This document shows, piece by piece, positions 4,741 to 41,095 of a DNA stretch of 64,000 bases. The DNA is taken from assembly GCF_037042905.1 (NCBI RefSeq), contig NC_087245.1, positions 25,174,001 to 25,238,000 of the forward strand, given 5' to 3'. The notes below the pieces were generated by a model. It searched no databases and had not been told where the DNA came from. It was given only the letters and a program-made list of their open reading frames with translations. A program made the translations under genes and the position numbers. This DNA is from Lytechinus pictus. Taxonomy: Eukaryota. Position 1 is the stretch's first letter. The number at the start of each line of letters is the position of its first letter.

Positions 4741-5114
4741 CAGGGGTGGTGCCACAGGCAGAGTGGGGGAGGGCAATGTTGCACCTTTAAAATTTCAAGT
4801 GCTTAAGAAAAGAAAATAATACAGGAAAAAGAAGATAAGGATGAAAGGGGAAAAATAGAAGGTAAGAAGAAGAGGGATGGCTTTGTCATGCTACTCTGAA
4901 ATACAATTTTTTTAAAATCTAAAATGAATAAAACTTGCATCTGGGGCCCGTAACACAAACCTTAGCAATGGTCGTAGAACATTTTTCTACGATTGATTCC
5001 ATTGACTACAATGTACAATCACCATGAAAATCAAGCATACGATCAATTGCTAACCTTTGTGTTATAGGACCCTTAATCCTCTTACCTCCTAATGAAACCG
5101 TGGCACGACCCTTG
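4741..5114. mobile_element. Old hAT-like MITE with a nested MITE
   Basis: CAGGGGTGGTGCCACAGG vs reverse complement of right end CAAGGGTCGTGCCACGG; TSD not preserved. Confidence 0.5.
4943..5072. mobile_element. Short MITE (~130 bp); second copy at 38838 in opposite orientation
   Basis: TIR GGGGCCCGTAACACAAACCTTAGC / GCTAACCTTTGTGTTATAGGACCC; core ATTGACTACAATGTACAATC is inverted in the 38838 copy. Confidence 0.8.
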
Positions 5115-9062: not shown

Positions 9063-11186
9063 GAAAATCTTTACTGAAATTCAAACCCCATATTTCTCTT
9101 AAAAGGGGGAAGAGGATGGGATATGCTTTAAAAAATACCCAGCAACAACAAAAAAACATTGTTGGGAGGGAGGGGGGGGGGTAAGGGGCATTATGTGTGG
9201 AACACAAACTCACACATCTTATGAAGGGCTGTGTTGGATAACTGTCTTTTTACCCGTCTGTTCTATTTTACTTGGAAACCCTGATACTAGAATATTTGCA
9301 TTTTAAGGGTCAGTCTTGTCAGTTGATGCATACAAGAATACCAACACCAAATCAGATAAAGAAAGGTCAGTTTTATTTTTATAGGGGATGTTAATAAGGC
9401 CGAGAGGATTGGGACAGTGCCAATATTCTTGAACTCCATGTAAACAATGCCACCATGTACACAGATTTAGGTCAACTTCTGTTGATCAGACAATGTTCCA
9501 TGCAGTATTACACAAGGAAAAAACCTTTCTCCTTTCTCGTACATTCTCATTTTTAACAAGAAAATAAAAGATTTACTGGCACTATTTTGCTATCAGGGGT
9601 AGATGTTAAGATACTGATATAGTAATGTTTTTTTTTTCAACTTCCTGAAGTAAAATATTTATCTTTTCCTAGTTTTTCATTGTGAATACCTGACCACACT
9701 GAAATCAGAAAAGGAGCGATTTTTAACATTTTCTCCTCTATCATCAATTGATATGTAACCTTAATATATCCTGATTTGATTAGGAAAAGAAATTTTATTT
9801 TCTATCAGCAGTAGACTGGCATCCTTTGGATATATGGAATTGTATTTTAATTTGCTATAGTTGTACAGCATACTTTTTGCATTCATAAACAATGAATTTA
9901 GTTCCATCCCTGTCCTATCAGAAGTAGATGTTGACCTATTATTTTTTGCCATGTCATCAATACTAGAAAAAAATACTATTTTGTTTCAAATGAAATCATC
10001 CACATTTTGCTTAGTCCTAGTAATAAGAATGCTTCTGAAATTATATAAATAATGAATTTAGTTCCATCAAATTCCTATCAGGAGTAGATGTTGACCTATT
10101 ATTTTTTTCCCATGTCAAATATATTATTCAGTTTCATATGAAATTATACTTTGGTTTGTTCAGGGAAGTGTTATAGAAGGAAATGAAACTCGAAAAGTTC
10201 CCTTTGTAGCATGCGCGGAGCCGTTGTTATTCTCCATAATTGGCTTAATCCCCTGCGGTCGGTCGTAAAGTCCGCTCACGGTCGCGACAGTGCGGAAGTA
10301 CAGGACTCGCGCAGTGCAATATGGGATACGCTTATCTGCTAAGATGGACGCCGATTGTAAACACAGTGACATTGACGATATTCTTCGAAACACAATTCTT
10401 GGTTTCAAGATAAATAATTGAATTCAAATATCTTTAAAACTTAACAAGTTAGTCTCCTGCATTGTCATTGCAACGAGACTTCGTCTTCGGGGACTGTATA
10501 CACCTCGTAAGCCTGCGCTCCGGGCCTACGCTATCCCGGTAGATGTGCAGCCTGAGCCGCACGCAAAATCGTTCCCATCGAAACTGAACTTTCAATTCAA
10601 TTCAATTCAATTCAATTTTTCAATTTTCAATTTTCAATTTTTCAATTCAATTCAATGTCTTTATTTCCATATCAGTAAAAAAAATAAAATTCATATTTAC
10701 AACACATAACATTATAAATGCATTTCTAGTCATTAAATATTTACATACATAAAGAGAGCATTAAAAAAAAATGCATTTCATAATTCATGTACAATAATAT
10801 AATAGATGAGGAAAAAGGGGGGAACTAAAAAGCGAAGCTTGTGGGTTAAATGTTCCCCCCAGGAACAAAAATTCAGTAGATTGTGTACACAAAGAAGATG
10901 ATAAAAAAAAGCGTTTAAACAGAGTAACAAAGCAAAAACAAAACAAACACATCCACACCACACAGTCAATCACACAGGCATGGGGGGGGGGGGGAGGTAT
11001 TTGTGCCTAGTCAATTGTGCCTGGAACAAGTCACTCTAAAATTTGTAAATGAAAAGAAAAGAAAAAAAAAAAAAAAAAAGTTTCAAGTGAACCAGCCACA
11101 AAGAGTGAGACGCATCAAATACCGGTAAAGCACAATGTACATACATATTATCCAATTATTAGAGAGAGAAAAAAATATATATATAT

Positions 11187-11402
11187 TTAGTGACTATAAG
11201 TGGATAGCAAGCTTGATTTACATTTTTGTTTAAAAGAGTTTAAATAGCTGCATGGTGTAACATTCACATTCAGAGTATTCCATATCCGAGGACCTTGATG
11301 ACGGATTAATCTCAGTGAGCGATCATTTTCTACTTTTGAATAGTGTAATTTTGAACTTTGTCGGGTATTGTAAGAATGAATATGCTTATTTTGTTGAAAA
11401 AA
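11187..11402 (-). pseudogene. Out-of-frame C-terminus of the LINE ORF2
   Basis: Adding one T to the T6 run (plus-strand A6, 11397-11402) gives FQQNKHIHSYNTRQSSKLHYSKVENDRSLRLIRHQGPRIWNTLNVNVTPCSYLNSFKQKCKSSLLSTYSH*, with the usual H.YNTR / GP..WN.L / FK..K..L CR1-L2 end. Confidence 0.9.
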
Positions 11403-14344
11403 TGAGAGATATTGCTAGGTAATATTGTTTTTTTTAGTTTGAACATTAGAATAGCAGTTTGGTAAGTATGAATATAAAAAATATTCAACGTTTTAAGTCT
11501 AAAGAATATTGGTTGAGAATGGGCAAGGAAATGAGAAGATGTACAAATTCGTAAAGCCTTTTTCTGAAGTTTGTGCAAGGGTTCAAGTTTTGTTGAACCT
11601 GTCCCTCCCCATGCAATATTACAGTATTGTAAATAAGGAAGGATTAAAGAATTGTATAGCATTATCAGATGTTTTTCGGGAAGAATAGATTGGAGTTTAA
11701 ATAAAATGCCTATACTTTTTGATACTTTCCTACATATTTCCAATCTATGCTCACTGAAATTAATCTTATCATCAAGGGTGACTCCAAGAAATTTAACATT
11801 TCTGGTCATTGTAAGATTGACATTATTCATAATTAAGGAAATATTCAATTGATTATGAACAGTATTTTTGTTTGAGAAATATAAAAAGTTTGTTTTTTCA
11901 TAGTTGACAATAAGTTTGTTTGCATTAAACCAGTTAGTAATTTTAATCAGTTCACTATTTGTTTTGTTTATTAAATTAAAAAGATTATGATCTGATGCAA
12001 TAATTGTGGTGTCATCAGCAAATAAGATAAACTCAAAAAAGTCTGATAATTTACTTAAATCATTAATATATAGTAGAAAAATCAAAGGACCGAGAATTGA
12101 ACCTTGAGGAATACCTGAAGTAATATTTGTAAAAGAAGAGGAGCAATTTTTGAATAAAGTGTACTGAGTTCTATTTGTTAAGTAATTATGAAACCATTGT
12201 AATGGAATACCTCGGATACCAAAATTCTTCAGTTTGTACAACAATATATCATGGTTTATAAGATCAAATGCTTTAGTAAGATCAAGAAAAATTCCTAAGG
12301 AATGAAGACCATTATTCATTTTTGTCACTAGTCGATCCTGTAAATCAACAACTGCAAGGTCACATGAATGATGGGGTCTAAAGCCATATTGACAATTATT
12401 TAATAATGCATATTTTTCAAGATGACTAAATAATCTTACATAAACAATTCTTTCCAATATTTTTGAAAGACACGGTAACATAGATATAGGACGATAATTT
12501 GAAAACATATGAGGATCGCCTTTTTTATATAAAGGAATTATCTTACTAATCTTCATATTATCCGGAACATCGCCTGAACAGAGTGACAGATTGAATATAT
12601 ATGACAATGGCATTGCAATAAAATGAATAACCTTTTTAATGACCTTACAACTTATTTCATCAATACCAGAACTGGCTGTGTTTTTCATATTTTTTACAAT
12701 ATCTATTAATTCATTTTCATTGGTTGGATGAAAATAAATAGACTGGCTACACTCTTCAGGTAAATAAAAGGAAAAATCTTTTGAGCCTGAATCAGACCTA
12801 ATTTCTCTTTGAAGATTCATAGAGATATTAGTGAAGTATGAATTAAATTCTTCTGCAATATATTCATTATTTTCAATTTTGGTTCCATTTTTAATAAAAT
12901 ATGAAGGATATTTGTTTTTATTTTTGTTTTGTTTATGTAGTAGGTCATTTATTATTTGCCATACCCTTGTCATACTTTTCCTGTTAATTTCGAGTAAATG
13001 AGCATAGTACTCCTTCCTTGCTTTTCTTAAAATTGCAGTAAGAATATTTCTATACCTCTTATATCTCGCTTCTATGTGAATATTGGAAGAATTGTGAATA
13101 AAATTCTTATACAAACGATCTTTTTTATGTATACATTTCAATAATGATCTTGTTAACCATGGTTTACGAGGAGTATTCTTTCTTTTAATTCTTTTACAAA
13201 TAAAATTCTTATCATATAGTTGTTTGAATTTAAGACAAAAAATATTATAAGCATCTTCTGTAGTTGACTTTGATAAGAGTTCGCTCCAGTCAGTGATCAA
13301 CAAATCATCCTTGAATTTATTTATGGTAGTATCATTTATTTTCCTAGAGTAAGCATCAGTATTCTCAGTAGTGGAGTGATTAACATTGCTGTATTTGTTG
13401 TCATTGACAGATAAAAGAAATACCGGTAAGTGATCACTTACATCACTGTAAAGTATACCTGATTTAAATGTATCAAAGCTGGTATTCGTAAAAATATTAT
13501 CAATTAACGTGACAGAAGATTTTGATATTCTAGTCGGTTTGTCAATCACTGGCTGAAATGAATTACTATATACAATATCGACAAAATCATTTATACATTT
13601 TAACGATTGTTGCAATAAATTAATATTCATATCTCCCATAATATAAACTTCTTTATTTTCTTTTTGAATTTTCTCTAGACACATGTTAAAAGATTCATTA
13701 AACTTATATATGGCTTGTTTTGGATCTCTATAAATAATGCCGATAATAATGTTCTTTTTCTTTGTATGCTTAATCTCAATAAAAATTGATTCACAAAGAT
13801 TTACAGGCATACTTATATCTGATCGAATACAGACATTGATACAATTTTTTATAAAGAAACCAACTCCTCCACCTCTACTTTTCATTCTATCAACATGATA
13901 AAAAGAATATTCATCAGTGTCAAATAAAAGAGGAGTACCAGCATGGATCCAAGTTTCCGTAATACCAATCACAGAAAAATTTATCTTTAATTGATGTAAA
14001 AATAGGTTTATGGAATCTATATTTTTTCGTAAACTTCTTGCATTGAAGTGAATCATACTGAATACATTATTAGAGTTTGCTAAGGATTTATTGAATTCAT
14101 GAGCAAGCCAGTATCTACATGTTACAGAAGTTCTCAAAAAATTGCTATCAGGATCAATATCACAAAGGAAAGAATCATGAACATCATGGGTATCAGAATT
14201 AAAAGTTTCATATAAAGACTGAGAGTTAAGCTCATCAATACTGATATCAGAATAGATTGTTTCATCGTTCTGATATGTTTTGAATTCTTGTTGTAAATCA
14301 GCGTTGCTAAGTGAGTGAAACGGAAATATTTGTGAATCAAACAT
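11330..14344 (-). CDS. LINE ORF2 protein: apurinic-like endonuclease + reverse transcriptase (1004 aa as read; C-terminus frameshifted)
   Basis: EN motifs HFNARSL, IGITETW, GGGV, IYRDP, MGDMN, PTR, IDNIF, SDH; RT motifs YRPIS, QYGFR, FLDLTKAFD, PQGSILGP, LFADDT, KFLGV; N-terminal FPF...DIDPDSNF...CRY segment resembles Crack/L2-group ORF2. Confidence 0.97.
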   Translation of the reverse strand: MFDSQIFPFHSLSNADLQQEFKTYQNDETIYSDISIDELNSQSLYETFNSDTHDVHDSFLCDIDPDSNFLRTSVTCRYWLAHEFNKSLANSNNVFSMIHFNARSLRKNIDSINLFLHQLKINFSVIGITETWIHAGTPLLFDTDEYSFYHVDRMKSRGGGVGFFIKNCINVCIRSDISMPVNLCESIFIEIKHTKKKNIIIGIIYRDPKQAIYKFNESFNMCLEKIQKENKEVYIMGDMNINLLQQSLKCINDFVDIVYSNSFQPVIDKPTRISKSSVTLIDNIFTNTSFDTFKSGILYSDVSDHLPVFLLSVNDNKYSNVNHSTTENTDAYSRKINDTTINKFKDDLLITDWSELLSKSTTEDAYNIFCLKFKQLYDKNFICKRIKRKNTPRKPWLTRSLLKCIHKKDRLYKNFIHNSSNIHIEARYKRYRNILTAILRKARKEYYAHLLEINRKSMTRVWQIINDLLHKQNKNKNKYPSYFIKNGTKIENNEYIAEEFNSYFTNISMNLQREIRSDSGSKDFSFYLPEECSQSIYFHPTNENELIDIVKNMKNTASSGIDEISCKVIKKVIHFIAMPLSYIFNLSLCSGDVPDNMKISKIIPLYKKGDPHMFSNYRPISMLPCLSKILERIVYVRLFSHLEKYALLNNCQYGFRPHHSCDLAVVDLQDRLVTKMNNGLHSLGIFLDLTKAFDLINHDILLYKLKNFGIRGIPLQWFHNYLTNRTQYTLFKNCSSSFTNITSGIPQGSILGPLIFLLYINDLSKLSDFFEFILFADDTTIIASDHNLFNLINKTNSELIKITNWFNANKLIVNYEKTNFLYFSNKNTVHNQLNISLIMNNVNLTMTRNVKFLGVTLDDKINFSEHRLEICRKVSKSIGILFKLQSILPEKHLIMLYNSLILPYLQYCNIAWGGTGSTKLEPLHKLQKKALRICTSSHFLAHSQPIFFRLKTLNIFYIHTYQTAILMFKLKKTILPSNISHFFNKISIFILTIPDKVQNYTIQK

Positions 14345-15884
14345 TTAAAATGGAAATGTAATATGAAAAATAATTAATATCTAAATTGGGGGAAAAAAAA
14401 AAAAAAACCAGGCACACACACACACACACACAAGCACCCTTGTACACACCAATTATTATAATGAGAAGGTACATAAAAAAGTTAAGTGTATAAAGAGATA
14501 TAAAGGCATAGTATACTGCTACACGGTAGACGTCTTTAACGATGAACGGATCCATAATGTATACAGTATGTAGCAGAGATCCAACCATATAAGGTAACTT
14601 TAACTTAAAATGAAACTTCCCAAAGCCCACCAAACACAGCATTTAATGATTTAATAATGGAACATAAACTGAAATAAATAAATCATGGTCATTTCCATGC
14701 AATCTTATACCATTATTCAGCTGCACGAAAGTCGCTTTCCATGCACGCGTGGCGCTCGAATCGAGTCGATCAACGGCCAAACTGGAGATTTCGGTGAAAA
14801 TCAACCAACTTTGAAGTACCATAACTTTTAGGCACGCGAGAACACGCCAATGAGACAACTACCATCATAAAGATATTTTATTCCTCTTCACTTACATATA
14901 ACAGAAGAATAGCCAAGATTAGCGGGTCATACAATGAAATCTATATATCATATCATATACAAAAATGTAAACAAATAGATAACAAACCTTGTTACTCCGG
15001 TTTACGAAAAGTGAATTTGATGAATGAGATATCGGCTGAATCGTTAGACTACACTGGGTGCGAATGTGATAACTACGCATGTCTCCAGCAATCAACAGAG
15101 TGGTGCGCAGCCAAAACGTGTACATATAACTTTTCACTCTGAACTCAGCTATTGAGAAATCATGTAAATGACGTCATGTTATCGGCTCCGAGGTAGTGAG
15201 ATCAAAAGACGAAGTCGTTTGGCTAGGAGAGCGAAGATTAGGAGCGAGGCAGGGAAAGCGATAAAAGTAAGCCTTGGTTGCGTAATCATTGCGGCCTGCA
15301 GGGGTATTTTGGGGGCTGGTGAGAGACTTACCAGCAGTTATCAGCAGGGTGTCCCCTCTCAATTTCACTTCGGATTTGCCTAAAGGGGGCAATAAAATCT
15401 TACTTTTCGAGTTTCATTTCCTTCTATAACACTTCCCTGGTTTGTTCTTGTTATATAGCATGCCTTTTAATTATATAAGAAATGGATTAAATTCCATCTC
15501 ATATCCATCAGTAGTAGATGTAGACCCATTTTTTGTCTTATCATTAGGACTAAGAACTATTTACTGGTTTTTTTTATAGAATTATATTTTGGTTTGTTCT
15601 AGTTATATAGCATGCTTTTTTGGTTATATGCCAAATGGATCTATATAGTTCCATCTTATTCCAATCAGTAGTAGATGTAGACCAATTATTTCTTTCTTAT
15701 GTCATGAAGACTAAGAACTATCTTATTTGGTTTCTTACAGAATTATATTTCAGTTCTAATTATACAGCATGCTTTCCAAGTTACTAGTACATAAGAAATA
15801 GATTAGTTTTGTCTCATTCCTATCAGTAGTAGATGTTGACCTACTTTGAAGAAATATTTGATATGGATGCGAAAATCCATTTTT

Positions 15885-17663
15885 GTCTCGCCTGCATCGC
15901 TGAGCGAGACTATAGACTCCACTTTGAAATCTTAACCAACGTTAAGTTTTTGAAATGTCATCATAACTAAAAAAGTATATGGACCTAGTTCATGAAACTT
16001 AATATAAGGGTAATCAAGTATTAGTAAAGATCCTGCTTTAGTTTTAAGGTCACACGATCAAGATCAAAGGTCACTTAGGGTAAATGAACTTTGGCCATGT
16101 TGGAGGTATTTATAGAATTGTCATCATAACTTCAAAAGTTCATGGATCTAGTTCATGAAACTTGGACAAAAGAGCAACCATGTATCCCTTAATATCATGT
16201 GCGAGTTTCATATCACATGACCAGGGTCAAAAGCCATTTAGTCAACAAAATTTGACATTGTTTGGGGTATTTATGGATTTGCCATCATAGTTTTGAAATT
16301 TTATGGATCTAGTTCTTGAAACCTTGATTTAAGAGCAAACAAGTATCCTTGAACATTCTGTGCTAGTTTCAGGTCACGTGACCAAGGTCAAAGGTCATTT
16401 AGGGTCATTGAACTTTGGTAATGTTGGGGGTACTTGTGGAATTGTCATCATAACTTTAAAAGTCTGTGGATCTAGTTCATGAAACTTGGACATAAGAGCA
16501 ACCATGTATCCCTGAATACCCTGTACGTGTTTCAGGAACATGACCAAGATCGAAGATCATTTAAGGACGTTCCACAGTTATGTTTGTGCGCATTATGATC
16601 TGCGCATATTTTACACTCTGCGCGCTGACGTCACAATGGATGAACAGGTGATTAATTAGCTGTGGGTATGAACTGATTTTTCTCATCATCTGCACTCTAA
16701 TTGCAGATCCGATGCATTAGTTTATGAAGGTAAAAAAATGTAATTATTCCATGGACCATTTAAAAAAACATCTCTACAATTTTAAAATACTTTACTCTGC
16801 AGTGCTGCCAAAAATCACGAATATGACCCCGAGTTTGAATAAATGGTAGAGTGGTTTTGATTTTTTCTTCTCATAGATACAAAGCATTTGGCGCATTTTT
16901 GGTGTTTTAAAAAGCACATTTGCTCTAATGAAAATGCTGATAGTTTGAAAACAAGCACATGAAGCCCTATTTTTTAATGTTTGCACCTCTTAGGTATACC
17001 TTCCTCTACAACTTTGCAAATTTTGGTGAAAATGACATGGATTTTGAATAAAGTGCAGCATTTATTGTACTTTTGTAGTTTGTTATTGAAATTTCACTTT
17101 TTTGAGATTGGGTTTTTGTTATGTTTTACGCCATTTTTAAGAACTGACAGTGCTGTTAGACTTAAAATTGCAAACAAATAGCTCTATAAATAGATTTTCC
17201 ATTCTAACGATACACTTATTAACTCTCTTGCGAAATTTGATGACTTTTTCATGTATTTTGACTGAGTAATAGAGGTTTATTAACTCATTGTAGTGATCTT
17301 GCGAGGTCTAAAAATGCCAAATTCTTTTGAATGCGCAATCCGTAAGAACATTCATTCGGGTGAACTCTGAAGCTCCATAGCAAAAAATCAAGCACATGGA
17401 CCTATGTTAATTTTTGCATATTTTGAATATTCAGGTTCTAAAGTATCTATGTGCAAAGTTTGGTGAAAATGACATGGATTTCATTTTAACTGTGAAACGT
17501 CCTTAAGGTCAATGAGCTCTGGCTGTGTTTGGAGTATTTGTTGAATTGGCATGTTTTATTTTGAAAATAATCATTCAATAGCTGTTTTCAAAGTCAGCTC
17601 TGCTGCTACATGTATATCAAATCGCGTAATGCAGGCAAGACTGCCAGAGGCATTCCACTTGTT
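15885..17663 (+). mobile_element. Helentron-associated non-autonomous element (HINE / DINE-1 / Tsp-like), copy 1, interrupted
   Basis: 5' TTTT|GTCTCGCCTGCA..GCGAGAC hairpin; ~162-bp internal tandem units; 3' TGCAGGCAAGAC + CCAGAGGCATTCCACTTGTT; homologous to the 33287 and 40031 copies. Confidence 0.85.
16565..17502. mobile_element. Kolobok-like non-autonomous DNA transposon nested in HINE copy 1
   Basis: 16-bp TIR GGACGTTCCACAGTTA / TAACTGTGAAACGTCC (1 mismatch); TTAA TSD at 16561-16564 and 17503-17506; purine-purine terminus; internal ~90-bp duplication (about 16952-17045 and 17390-17482). Confidence 0.88.
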
Positions 17664-18629
17664 TATTTGTTATTATTTACCACATCCGTTTTAGATTATT
17701 CATTTCTAAGAGAGGAATATTTTATCACCATTCTGTGAGCAGTAGATGTTGACCTACCGATATTAAAAAAATCTTATTTGATTGGGACTTTAAACATTTA
17801 TGTATGGTCTATGACTGACAGTGAGTTTATGTAGGAAGTTATCAACACCATCACTCTTTTAGTAGAGAAAGTTGACTTATTTCTTTCTTTCTCAATATTT
17901 TTTAGGTCAATAAGTGATATTTCATTTATGAATTGATAAATAGTATGAAAAAATTTAAACTTTATAACAAGGACAAGTGATTTGAAGTCATAGGGATCTA
18001 CATTTACAAAATATGATTGATTAGATAAGGGAATATTTTATTAAAGAAACTTACAAAAATAGAAAAGAGAAGATAAAAAATATGGAAGGTGAAGATATTT
18101 TTATTGTGAAAAGGATACTGAATTGGAATATAGAGGATAATGAATTCGAAATGAAAATATAATATTCAGGTGAGAAGTGAAAATATGATGGATGAAAAGA
18201 AAAATGAAAAGCTAAAATAAATAGAAATACAAACAAAAAATACTCTACCAACCCTGTCAGAAGAAATAACCATTCTTTAATATACTGACCTCGTTGGTTG
18301 ACTATAGGAATGCTGTGTGAATTGTACTGATATGAACGTTAGATAGCTGACCAAGTTAAGTGAAGCGGGCTCAATCTGTAATCTGTGTAGGAGAAGGGGA
18401 TACAGCTATCTCTGTATAAACATGCCATAGGTTTGGTTTGGATCACTGCTAGAGTATTCAATACTGATTCACACTCTAAGAATATAATGGAACATTCACA
18501 TTAGAGGAAATTTGTGTAAACTAAAGTTAGAGGGATGCTCTGCTTACAAAAGTATAGCTCATTTGAATAAAAAGTAGTGATTATTAAAGCTGCATGTAGG
18601 AAATGTCTTGAGATAATATTTCGTTTTAT

Positions 18630-20813: not shown

Positions 20814-20914
20814 ACTTGGGGAAAATACAAATGGAAGTTTTACCTCTTCTTCCTCAATTACTCTTATAACAGGGAATTAAGACTTCATATTTAATTTCCT
20901 CTTCCTTTACAACA

Positions 20915-21935
<1,021 letters not shown>

Positions 21936-22232
21936 CATTTTTGTGCACAGATCTATTGAAATATATATGAATCAAAATTCAGGAAAATTTCAACTTAAAT
22001 TATGAACACTGCCTTCTTATATGAGATGAAGAATAATTTCAAGGTGTATGGGCCATCATATGAGCATGATCATGACATTTTGTGTCAGAACCAGGTCTCA
22101 ATTATCTGCTTCAAGTTAAATCTCCTGAAGGCCATTGCCCTATCATCTACCTGGTTATGTCCTTGATTGAGAGTTCTTACAGTGGACGGTCTGTGATCAA
22201 TATATTTGTTCTGTCCCTACTTCTGATTTCTT

Positions 22233-32350: not shown

Positions 32351-33286
32351 GGTTGGGTTAGAGGTGGGTGTGCTTGTGAGGGTGTGTGTGTATGTGTAAG
32401 GAGAGAGAGAGGGAAAGAGGTATTGGGGTATTATTTTTTTTGGGTATAGATATGGACTGTGGGATTTCTCTTTCTGGGGGGATTTCTAATGACAGAAGAT
32501 AATATTATTTATTTATAATTTTATTTTGTAAGATATACTGTACGTCCCAGTTGTAAAAAAGTACCTTTATTGCTACTATACTTTGCCTGATCCCAGTCCA
32601 TTGTTAGCATGATTTATGTGAATTCACAGGCTTATTATGAACTGAGTGTGAACATGCCCCTGTAATCAGAGACACACCTGTGGTACTTCAAAAATGTTCT
32701 CATATCCTGTACGTAAAATGGTGGGCACATTCGTACCCACCTCAATTTCCTTTGTCCGTGCCTCTCCCATCTCAAAATGACATCACAACTGACATTCTCC
32801 CCTCCAAACTTGACATTCATTCAAAACTTGCATGTCACTCCCAATCGAGATTTGTTTATTGGAGTTTTGTGAATGTTTGAAAGGTACCTGGTTCTTTCTT
32901 GTTTTATTGGGACCAATCTTTTCTATTTTAGTGTTTTTTTGTTGGGAGGTCTCAAATGTTGATTTTTGTTGTTGAAATGATCAATGCACGTTGTCAACAA
33001 GAGTCTTACGGAAAATGTGCCCCATAAAGAATTAGACTCATGTTTCTGCAATAATACACATTTGTTTGACTTGTGAAGATTAGAATCAAGGTGTAGGATT
33101 AACATTTTTCATATCCTTCTTTAGGTAAGTACATATTAATACATGTACCTTAGTCACATTTTCTCTATGTTATAAGCAGCTGTTTTCGACTCGATGTACG
33201 GCTGCAGTAGAGCAAATGTGACTGAGGTATTACCAAAGTATCGAATTGAATGAACATATGTGCCCTTGTGAAATTTAAGTATTTTT

Positions 33287-34136
33287 GTCTTGCCTTGCAT
33301 AGCAGAGTGAGACTATAAGTGCCGCTTTTCCGACGGTTAAGGTTAAGTTTTTTAAATGACATCATAACATAGAAAGTATATGGACCTAGTTCATGAAACT
33401 TGGACATAAGGATAATCAAGTATTATTGAACATCCTGCCTTGGTTTCAGGTCACATGATCATGGTCAAAGTTCATAATAGGGACAATGAACTTAGACCAT
33501 GTTGGGGGAATCAATATCGAAATTTCAACCTAAGGTTAAGTTTTTAAAATGTCATCATAACTTAAAATGTATATGGACCTAGTTCATGAAACTTAGACAT
33601 AAGGGTAATGAAGTATTACTTAACATTCTGTGCAAGTTTCAGGTCACATGACCAAGGCAAAAGGTCATGTAGGGTCAATGAACTTTGGCCATGTTGGGGG
33701 TATTTGTTGAATTACCATCGTAAACTTTGAAAGTTTATGGATCTAGTTCATAAAACTTAGATATAAGAGTAATCAAGTATCACTGAACATCCTGTGCGAG
33801 TTTCAGGTCACATGACCAAGGTCAAAGGTCATTTAGTGTCAGTGAACTTTGGTCATGTTGGGGGTATTTGTTGAATTGGCATCATAACTTAAAAAGTGCA
33901 TGGATCTAGTTCATGAAAAGACATAAGGGTAATCAAGTATAAGTGATTGTTTTGCACACATCTTAGATCACATGATCATGGTGAAAGGTCACTGTGGGTC
34001 AATGGGCATAGTATTTTATTATCATATGAATGATTTCTTTTGTGAATAATTATTCAATAGCTGTTTTCAAAGTCAGAACTGCTGCTATATCAAATCGCGT
34101 AATGCAGGCGAGACTGCCAGAGGAGTTCCACTTGTT
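33287..34136 (+). mobile_element. HINE/Tsp-like element, copy 2
   Basis: Same termini and ~162-bp internal units as the 40031 copy; GGC microsatellite missing. Confidence 0.88.
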
Positions 34137-38814: not shown

Positions 38815-38837
38815 GTAACTATAGAATATCATGTACA

Positions 38838-38968
38838 GGGTCCCGTAACACAAAGGTTAGCAATTAATCATACAATTGATTTTGATGATTGATTGTACAT
38901 TGTAGTCAATGCAGTTAATCGTATAAAAATGTTTTGCGATCATTGCTTACCTTTGTGTTCCGGGTCCC
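38838..38968. mobile_element. Short MITE, family of 4943
   Basis: TIR GGGTCCCGTAACACAAAGGTTAGCAAT / ATTGCTTACCTTTGTGTTCCGGGTCCC. Confidence 0.8.
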
Positions 38969-39448
38969 GGATTATATTATTGATAAACATAGTGAGAAAA
39001 TAGAATTGCACTTGTTATGAGTCTGGTGTGCTTGCAACGTAGGCTTGAGAAATACGATGATATGAGACATGATATGTTATGAGATTGAAAGCAATGCATA
39101 GAATAGAAAACCACGAGCAAAAAATGTCAAAGATATTAATAGGAGAATATTTTTGCAGATTTGGTCAGTGGTAAGAGTATGTTTTCCAAGTTCTCATTCC
39201 ATACTTTGGCAAAGGCTGAGAGCCCAGCAGACACAATGCTCCCTGAGAACAATCATTGCAATGCAAATAACATGGATGTAGTTTAAAACTTTTATTTGTA
39301 TTTCGTTCATGAGTGTTATAAAAGAATATGTTTAGAAAATGATTGGAAATAAGTGAAGAAACCATTTCATTGCAGAAGTACTCAATCTTGCAATTGCAGG
39401 CATTGTAAAATGGCAAAGTTAAGGATTAAACTTATTGGGCCTTATGAT

Positions 39449-41095
39449 TTTTAGCTCATCTGGTCGGAAGGGCCTGATGTGCTGATGCTGTGGCGTGGTT
39501 GGTTGTCTTTCAGTTGTCGCCCATCATCCTAGAGCTGTCCATAATTTCAAAATGCTTTTTCATCGTCATGTCATATGATATATCATATATGATAGCACTA
39601 GATGGGGGGTACCAAACTTCTACAAAGAATTTTGAAACTCATTAGACATGCTAATATGTCAACATTCACAAAAAATGTTTCTTTATTTTGTTGACTTTTT
39701 ATTTTTTTATGTTCTATCTCCATCTGGCAAAGCTACATGAGGTTCACCAAATGTGTACTTAATTTATCGAAATTCACAAAATATGTTTCTTGCTTTATGA
39801 CTTCACTAGGTGAATGTATTCTTCTACTCAGAATTTTGAAACTCACGCTGATTTATACTCACTTTTTAAAGTTCACAGAAAATGCTCTTTTTAAATTGTT
39901 AAACAGTTTCATTGTTTTGGTTCAAATTTGTATAGCTACATGAGGTTCACCAAACTTCTACTTAGAATTTTGAAACTGTGACTAGAAAATGTATAATAAA
40001 ATAAAAGAATGCTTCTCTTCCTTCATTTTTGTCTCACCTGCATAGCAGAGTGAGACTATAGGCGCCGCTTTTCCGACGGCGGCGGCGACGGCGGCGGCGG
40101 CGTCAACACCAAATCTTAACCTGAGGTTAAGTTTTTGAAATGACAGCATAACTTAGAAAGTATATGGACCTAGTTCATGAAACTTGGCCATAAGGTTAAT
40201 CAAGTATTACTGAACATCCTGCCTGAGTTTCATGTCACATGACCAAGGTCAAAGGTCATTTAGGGTCAATGAACTTAGACCATGTTGGGGGAATCAACAT
40301 CAAAATCTTAACCTAAGGTTAAGTTTTTGAAATGTCATCATAACTTAGAAAATATATGGACCTAGTTCATGAAACTTATACATAAGGTTAATCAAGTATC
40401 ACTGAACATCCTGCATGAGTTTCACGTCACATGACCAAGGTCAAAGGTCATTTAGGGTCAATGAACTTTGGCCGAATTGGGGGTATCTGTTGAATTACCA
40501 TCATAACTTTGAAAGTTTATGGATCTGATTCATGAAACTTGGACATAATAGTAATCAAGTATTACTGAACATCCTGTGCAAGTTTCAGGTCACATGATCA
40601 AGGTCAAAGGTCATTTAGGGTCAATGAACTTTGGCCAAATTGGGGTATTTGTTGAATTACAGCCATAAATTTGAAAGTGTGTTGGTCTAGTTCATAAAAC
40701 TTGGACATAATAGTAATCAAGTATCACTGAACATCCTGTGCGAGTTTCAGGTCACATGATCAAGGTCAAAGGTCATGTAAGGTCAAAGAACTTTGGCCAC
40801 GTTGGGGGTATTTGTTGAATTGCCATCATATCTCTATAAGTGTATTGGTCTAGTTCATAAAACGTGGAAATAAGAGTAACCAAGTATCACTGAACATCTT
40901 GTGCGAGTTATAGTAGTTTTCAAAATCAGCACTGCTGCTATATTGAATCGCGTGATGCAGGTGAGACGGCCAGAGGCATTCCACTTGTTTAAAATCAGTT
41001 TCAGTTCCACTTGCTCTATTTGATAGCACTAGGTGGTGGATACAAAACTTCACCAAATGTTTAAACTCATTAAATATACTAATTTATGCACATTT
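39449..41095 (+). mobile_element. Older, second-family HINE-like element interrupted by HINE copy 3
   Basis: 5' TTTTAGCTCATCTGGTCGGAAGGGCCTGATGTGCT hairpin-type head; degenerate units (GATAGCACTAG, ACCAAACTTC, GAATTTTGAAACTC) on both sides of 40031-40989. Confidence 0.55.
40031..40989 (+). mobile_element. HINE/Tsp-like element, copy 3 (best preserved)
   Basis: Subterminal IR GTCTCACCTGCA (40031-40042) / TGCAGGTGAGAC (40956-40967); 5' hairpin; (GGC/GAC)n microsatellite; units spaced 192, 163, 162 bp; T-rich insertion site with no TSD. Confidence 0.92.

Follow-up and report, generated by a model that had tools for sequence, protein, structure and literature searches.

A LINE inside a non-autonomous cut-and-paste element of Lytechinus pictus, most readily explained by a single nested insertion

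In a stretch of Lytechinus pictus DNA of 64,000 nucleotides (NC_087245.1, positions 25,174,001 to 25,238,000; in the following, the window), a unit bounded by terminal inverted repeats (TIRs) encloses a LINE. This raises the question whether the LINE entered a small non-autonomous element in a one-off event, or whether both form a composite class I/class II unit which moves a reverse transcriptase (RT) gene by DNA transposition. The initial annotation had left both readings open. The features of the locus are listed in Table 1.

Table 1. Features of the nested unit and its host site (positions in the window).
Feature	Position	Strand	Remarks
Tandem array, left portion	9835..10153	.	diverged ~157-160-bp units
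Left target-site duplication	10154..10160	+	GTTTGTT; alternative 9-bp version 10153-10161
Left TIR	10161..10198	+	38 bp
Left arm, non-autonomous element	10161..10591	+	non-coding, GC 47%, CpG o/e 1.32
Left copy of LINE direct repeat	10587..10591	+	AACTT, 5 bp
LINE 3' UTR and microsatellite tail	10592..11186	-	tail ~10592-10656, TTGAA / TTGAAAA units, no poly(A)
LINE ORF2, apurinic endonuclease and RT	11187..14344	-	catalytic motifs present; one-base gap 11404/11405
LINE leader	14345..14601	-	low-complexity, 257 bp; no ORF1 seen
Right copy of LINE direct repeat	14602..14606	+	AACTT, 5 bp
Right arm, non-autonomous element	14607..15439	+	non-coding, GC ~41%; joined left arm at 14602 in LINE-free copies
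Right TIR	15402..15439	-	38 bp
Right target-site duplication	15440..15446	+	7-bp reading
Tandem array, right portion	15447..15850	.	same array as 9835..10153; diverged ~157-160-bp units

Positions 9519-15938 of the window were compared with 4 of 24 listed public runs, which originate from two organisms, A and B. X1 comprises contigs of organism A (kind not on record) and X21 raw RNA of the same organism, while X9 and X13 are DNA contigs of organism B from two studies. Since X1 showed no differences to the left flank over 455 bases, organism A is probably the species of the window. For the contig comparison, 24 of 292 loose ends and 24 of 1752 pieces were listed, and positions 10581-10625 were skipped as repeat. 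Contig depth does not equal copy number, and contigs drop rare variants.

Both the length of the unit (5279 bp) and its perfect TIRs were re-measured and hold: the two repeats of 38 nt showed a complementarity of 100%, and every further 38-mer in the 64-kb window lies at least 15 mismatches away. The motif GTTTGTT, proposed as an exact target-site duplication (TSD), flanks the unit at both ends (chance by base composition ~1.5e-4). An exhaustive boundary test of the nearby positions resulted in two symmetric readings only, namely a 7-bp duplication with the termini CAGGG..CCCTG and, equally symmetric, a 9-bp duplication (GGTTTGTTC) with the termini AGGG..CCCT and TIRs of then 37 bp. A contig of X13 (record 13), representing a copy at another site, matches through 15439, which weakly favours the 7-bp over the 9-bp TSD. 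The host site is a diverged tandem array with a period of ~157-160 bp, which is interrupted by the unit. Pattern scans with the TIR gave 0 matches in metagenome contigs and 0 in viral contigs. At the right TIR (position 15425) the depth was higher than in the arms, with 468.6 compared to 121.1 in X9 and 265.5 compared to 52-63 in X1; further elements probably share the same TIR, perhaps with an autonomous partner among them. The organism-B copies showed two additional bases near 15425.

The element was found separately from the LINE in the other samples. In all three contig sets (X1, X9 and X13), the left arm was joined directly to position 14602. The depth of this LINE-free joint amounted to 121.1 in X9 and 38.2 in X13, with likewise 121.1 and 38.2 determined for the arm at 14696. 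Accordingly, all visible arm sequence passes through the LINE-free joint. In X1, the joint lies on record 2 (889 nt, depth 52), where 10580 and 14602 are separated by the expected six letters. Furthermore, the X13 contig mentioned above covers 14801-15439 and continues beyond the right TIR with 609 letters that did not align to the flank of the window, so that the bare element occupies another site in organism B. Joints skipping the entire unit (10151 to 15438, 5286 bases) were observed in X9 and X13 and may originate either from an unoccupied site or from adjacent units of the array. In X9, the unit-skipping contig (10151/15438) and a left-arm contig (10329) both showed a depth of 87.1. If these two contigs are one, a bare element would lie within a similar array in organism B.

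Because the left arm continues at 14602 in the contigs lacking the LINE, the LINE could be delimited to 10592-14601, corresponding to 4010 bp with AACTT on either side. One copy of this motif is present at the LINE-free joint compared to two in the window, for which the probability by chance is ~0.002. The presence of a LINE in the interior, as initially described, is confirmed, while its inner limits and the extent of ~4.1 kb had to be revised. The same holds true for the arms, which had been placed at 10161-10588 and 14674-15439 on the basis of a chance 8-mer, AAACTGAA; the corrected right arm is 72 bp longer. As a candidate TSD of the LINE, AAACTGAA was rejected, as an equally long match occurred in 74 of 500 random draws and the LINE-free joints lie at 14602. 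The designation of the LINE as cargo is also wrong, since it shows an insertion signature separate from that of the element.

Without the LINE, the bare element comprises 1264 bp. The CpG o/e was 1.32 for 10161-10591 and 0.98 for 14602-15439, but only 0.49 for the LINE. Two segments of the organism-A copy in X1, one of ~240 nt at position 10384 and one of 26 nt at position 10252, are absent from the left arm of the window. The left arm (10248-10538) differs among copies in general, and the X13 copy skips 10384-10537. A Pfam search of the arm ORFs (four and one straddling the LINE end, then three more) gave no match and hence no transposase match, in agreement with the earlier statement that the unit encodes no transposase in cis. 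Among 144 other stop-to-stop frames of the window with at least 62 aa, four weak Pfam matches were obtained, all under the cut-off. Neither arm recurs in a window-wide search for more copies, and an Rfam search gave 0 matches.

Endonuclease and RT motifs were found in ORF2 of the LINE, whose start coincides with the start of its relatives. The ORF from 14344 to 11330 on the minus strand encodes 1004 aa and showed a match to RVT_1 with an E-value of 4e-35, while Exo_endo_phos in the same ORF (E 2e-4) remained under the Pfam cut-off. A single frame switch is located near 11404, so that the final ~70 aa, ending at 11187, lie in a different frame, in agreement with the single lesion initially described. 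The family contigs in X1 and X13 comprise one more base at 11404 and no frameshift. The frameshift is either private to the copy in the window or an assembly error. The closest ORF2 relatives showed an identity of 51-52% over 96-98% of the query; among the members inspected in 10 clusters, none carried a name, and an Atlas search with ORF2 returned RVT_1/endonuclease clusters only. A scan of metagenome contigs gave 11 ORF2 loci with 29-51% identity, which are too distant for use and showed no similarity to the arms. Elsewhere in the window, the LINE is represented by a 26-nt match only.

CR1-group LINEs carry a microsatellite tail, and the tail of the present LINE is of the TTGAA type and comprises no poly(A). 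Together with the ORF2 containing apurinic endonuclease (APE) and RT domains, these sequence features suggest a CR1-group-like LINE, with no superfamily assigned. In the account given in PMC13343379, the members of this group (L2, Crack, Daphne, Kiri and kin) likewise possess an ORF2 with APE and RT, carry no poly(A) tail except Zenon, and include ORF1-less forms. Since no ORF1 is visible, the LINE could be either 5'-truncated or ORF1-less. It differs from the named CR1-group LINEs in that the closest relatives found are unnamed and 51-52% identical.

A depth that is biased toward the 3' end is the pattern of 5'-truncated retrocopies. In the two organism-B runs X9 and X13, the ORF bins of the LINE showed 3.4 times the arm depth (median), and the bin at the LINE 3' end reached 24 and 62 times the arm depth. 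Toward the 5' end of the LINE the depth fell in X13 (rho -0.70, p 0.001); in X9 the decrease was not significant (rho -0.37, p 0.13). The LINE thus belongs to a separate, more abundant and 3'-biased family.

Among the pieces listed, no contig spanning an arm-LINE junction was seen in the three contig sets. The arithmetic of the bins covers five of the six junction bins (left in X1, X9 and X13; right in X1 and X9). For the left junction, the depth is explained without a junction contig in all three sets (50.06 vs. 50.0, 22.18 vs. 22.2 and 7.14 vs. 7.13), as it is for the right junction in X1 (12.88 vs. 12.9). In the bins of X1, a junction contig of depth 2 would add 0.21-0.28, which is near the limit of the test. 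In the right junction bin of X9, the contribution of the LINE contig amounts to 161.6 bases, compared to 161 bases for 14441-14601; this independently fixes the 5' limit of the LINE at 14601. Furthermore, no depth attributable to 14227-14601 was observed in X1, and several copies with common internal junctions and distinct TSDs were not found in the three contig sets.

These observations weigh on the leading alternative, according to which the LINE was acquired elsewhere in the genome of organism A and one or a few cut-and-paste transpositions subsequently brought the 5.3-kb pair to its present position. The perfect TIRs and TSD imply that the unit should remain a substrate, the TIR depth above the arm depth in X1 (265.5) and X9 (468.6) hints at more family members, and hobo_AC families are reported to have amplified with pieces of CR1, RTE and Penelope aboard (PMC3014272). 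The missing junction contigs in the testable bins, including those of organism A in X1 with no depth for 14227-14601, speak against such a jump, as does the rarity of multicopy cases among the animal Pack-TIRs described in PMC8277862 (4 of 370). Altogether, this alternative is considered unlikely. It is still less probable that joint transposition has carried the pair to multiple sites in organism A, thereby spreading the nearly intact endonuclease-RT gene, whose transcription might then start from the right arm with its high CpG content. The composite reading of the initial annotation is not supported, based on the LINE-free arms in all three sets and the lack of a junction contig among the pieces listed. 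Arms occurring without the LINE had been named beforehand as the observation that would speak against it, and this is largely what was found.

Very little probability is assigned to the Pack-TIR route, in which gap repair or template switching, and not retrotransposition, would have copied the LINE DNA into the element. The short microhomology at both junctions would fit this route, which is given as the origin of single-copy Pack-TIRs (PMC8277862); however, the insert stops exactly at the LINE tail with no foreign flank, a direct repeat is present and the target sequence shows no loss. An assembly artefact, in which a repeat was mis-joined into the element, would agree with the fact that no junction-spanning read or contig was seen among the pieces listed, but can practically be dismissed, since a mis-joined repeat would not be expected to be flanked by two clean copies of a 5-bp motif.

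With the arms joined without the LINE in three of three contig sets, the simple reading of a one-off LINE insertion into a non-autonomous element, for which ~1.2 kb had been estimated, is supported. The locus is thus very probably the result of a one-time event, in which a CR1-group-like LINE was inserted by target priming into a P- or hAT-like element of the non-autonomous type. This element of ~1.3 kb would earlier have been mobilised in trans by a transposase encoded elsewhere and integrated into the diverged ~157-bp array, as suggested by the TIRs and the TSD together with established knowledge of TIR elements. A young LINE would then have entered the element by target-primed reverse transcription with duplication of AACTT; the tail, the duplication and the depth profile of the family point to this step, which agrees with established knowledge of LINEs. 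The LINE presumably arrived after the element had reached the site. In principle, the pair could still be excised as one piece like any TIR-bounded DNA.

The assignment of the DNA element to a superfamily is less clear. The P superfamily is characterized by TIRs, CA..TG termini, a TSD of 7-8 bp and a THAP-DDE transposase, and the unit comprises TIRs of 38 bp (100%) and, in the 7-bp reading, the termini CAGGG..CCCTG. A transposase partner was found neither in cis nor by the TIR scans of metagenome and viral contigs. Mutator/MULE elements produce a 9-bp TSD, which corresponds to the reading with 37-bp TIRs and the termini AGGG..CCCT, against which record 13 of X13 weakly speaks. TSD lengths reported in PMC3698922 are 7 bp for Galileo and 1360, 8 bp for P and 8-9 bp for BuT5. 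For hAT elements, YARNG termini and an 8-bp TSD are given in PMC3014272; CAGGG fits the termini, and the TSD of the unit is not 8 bp long. Repbase mentions hAT families with a 7-bp TSD as well (PMC4455052). The initial label "P-like" is therefore plausible as a description, but membership is unproven, and a hAT affiliation is also conceivable.

DNA transposons that carry other elements are already published, as for example Galileo and hobo_AC. Galileo, a member of the P superfamily, resembles the present element in its TIRs, in TSDs that mostly measure 7 bp, and in the occurrence of non-autonomous copies and of inserts; in PMC4168063, nesting is described as common (33 of 191 copies hold inserted elements), with a portion of the inserted fragments having been incorporated into copies that transpose. 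In contrast to Galileo, the element in the window has short TIRs of 38 bp and no known transposase, and its insert is a near-intact LINE ORF2. In hobo_AC and hobo-N of Anolis (hAT), class I sequence (CR1, RTE, Penelope, SINE) is likewise found inside a DNA transposon (PMC3014272). As described there, these are multicopy families amplified with old fragments, whereas the window holds one copy with a young LINE and no amplification was seen. The animal Pack-TIRs share the TIR shell around foreign DNA, and most of those reported in PMC8277862 occur in one copy and are not mobilised as a whole. Their filler is described as host sequence acquired via gap filling, whereas in the window a retroelement was inserted that is flanked by a separate duplication. 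In the literature searched, no description of a mobile composite of TIRs and an intact LINE was found, which is no proof of absence; Pack-TIRs and hobo_AC come nearest.

The nested insertion can be used to mark the young age of both families in the lineage, and the data are useful for the curation of two repeat families, which are probably unnamed. A multicopy pair, if it existed, would represent the spread of an almost functional retrotransposon gene by means of a cut-and-paste element, which goes beyond the degraded fragments in hobo_AC.

A comparison of organism B with the window, among the listed pieces, showed differences of 1.8% in the LINE (64/3574; window 11196-14164), 3.7% in the arms (63/1688) and 9.6% in the flank (27/282). 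The low divergence of the LINE between both organisms could originate from purifying selection on an active LINE, from a recent exchange between the organisms or from paralogous flank units. In the raw RNA of X21 (~6% of the run), the depth amounted to 0-4 in most bins, with 11.5 reached in the 3' UTR, while joints were not observed. A handful of these RNA reads map to the right arm on both strands (depth ~2-4), which are too few for interpretation.

Elsewhere in the window, a dispersed repeat consisting of a ~163-bp tandem array with common end segments occurs three times (15879-17665, 33281-34136 and 40024-40991), and its first ~45 bases were extremely abundant in all four runs (X1, X9, X13 and X21). 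An (ACT)n array of ~320 units at 20870-21970, open among others as a poly-threonine frame of 366 aa, could represent either a mucin-like exon or a plain microsatellite. Another dispersed repeat of 136 bp is located at 4939-5073 and 38837-38972, in opposite orientations and with an identity of 83%.
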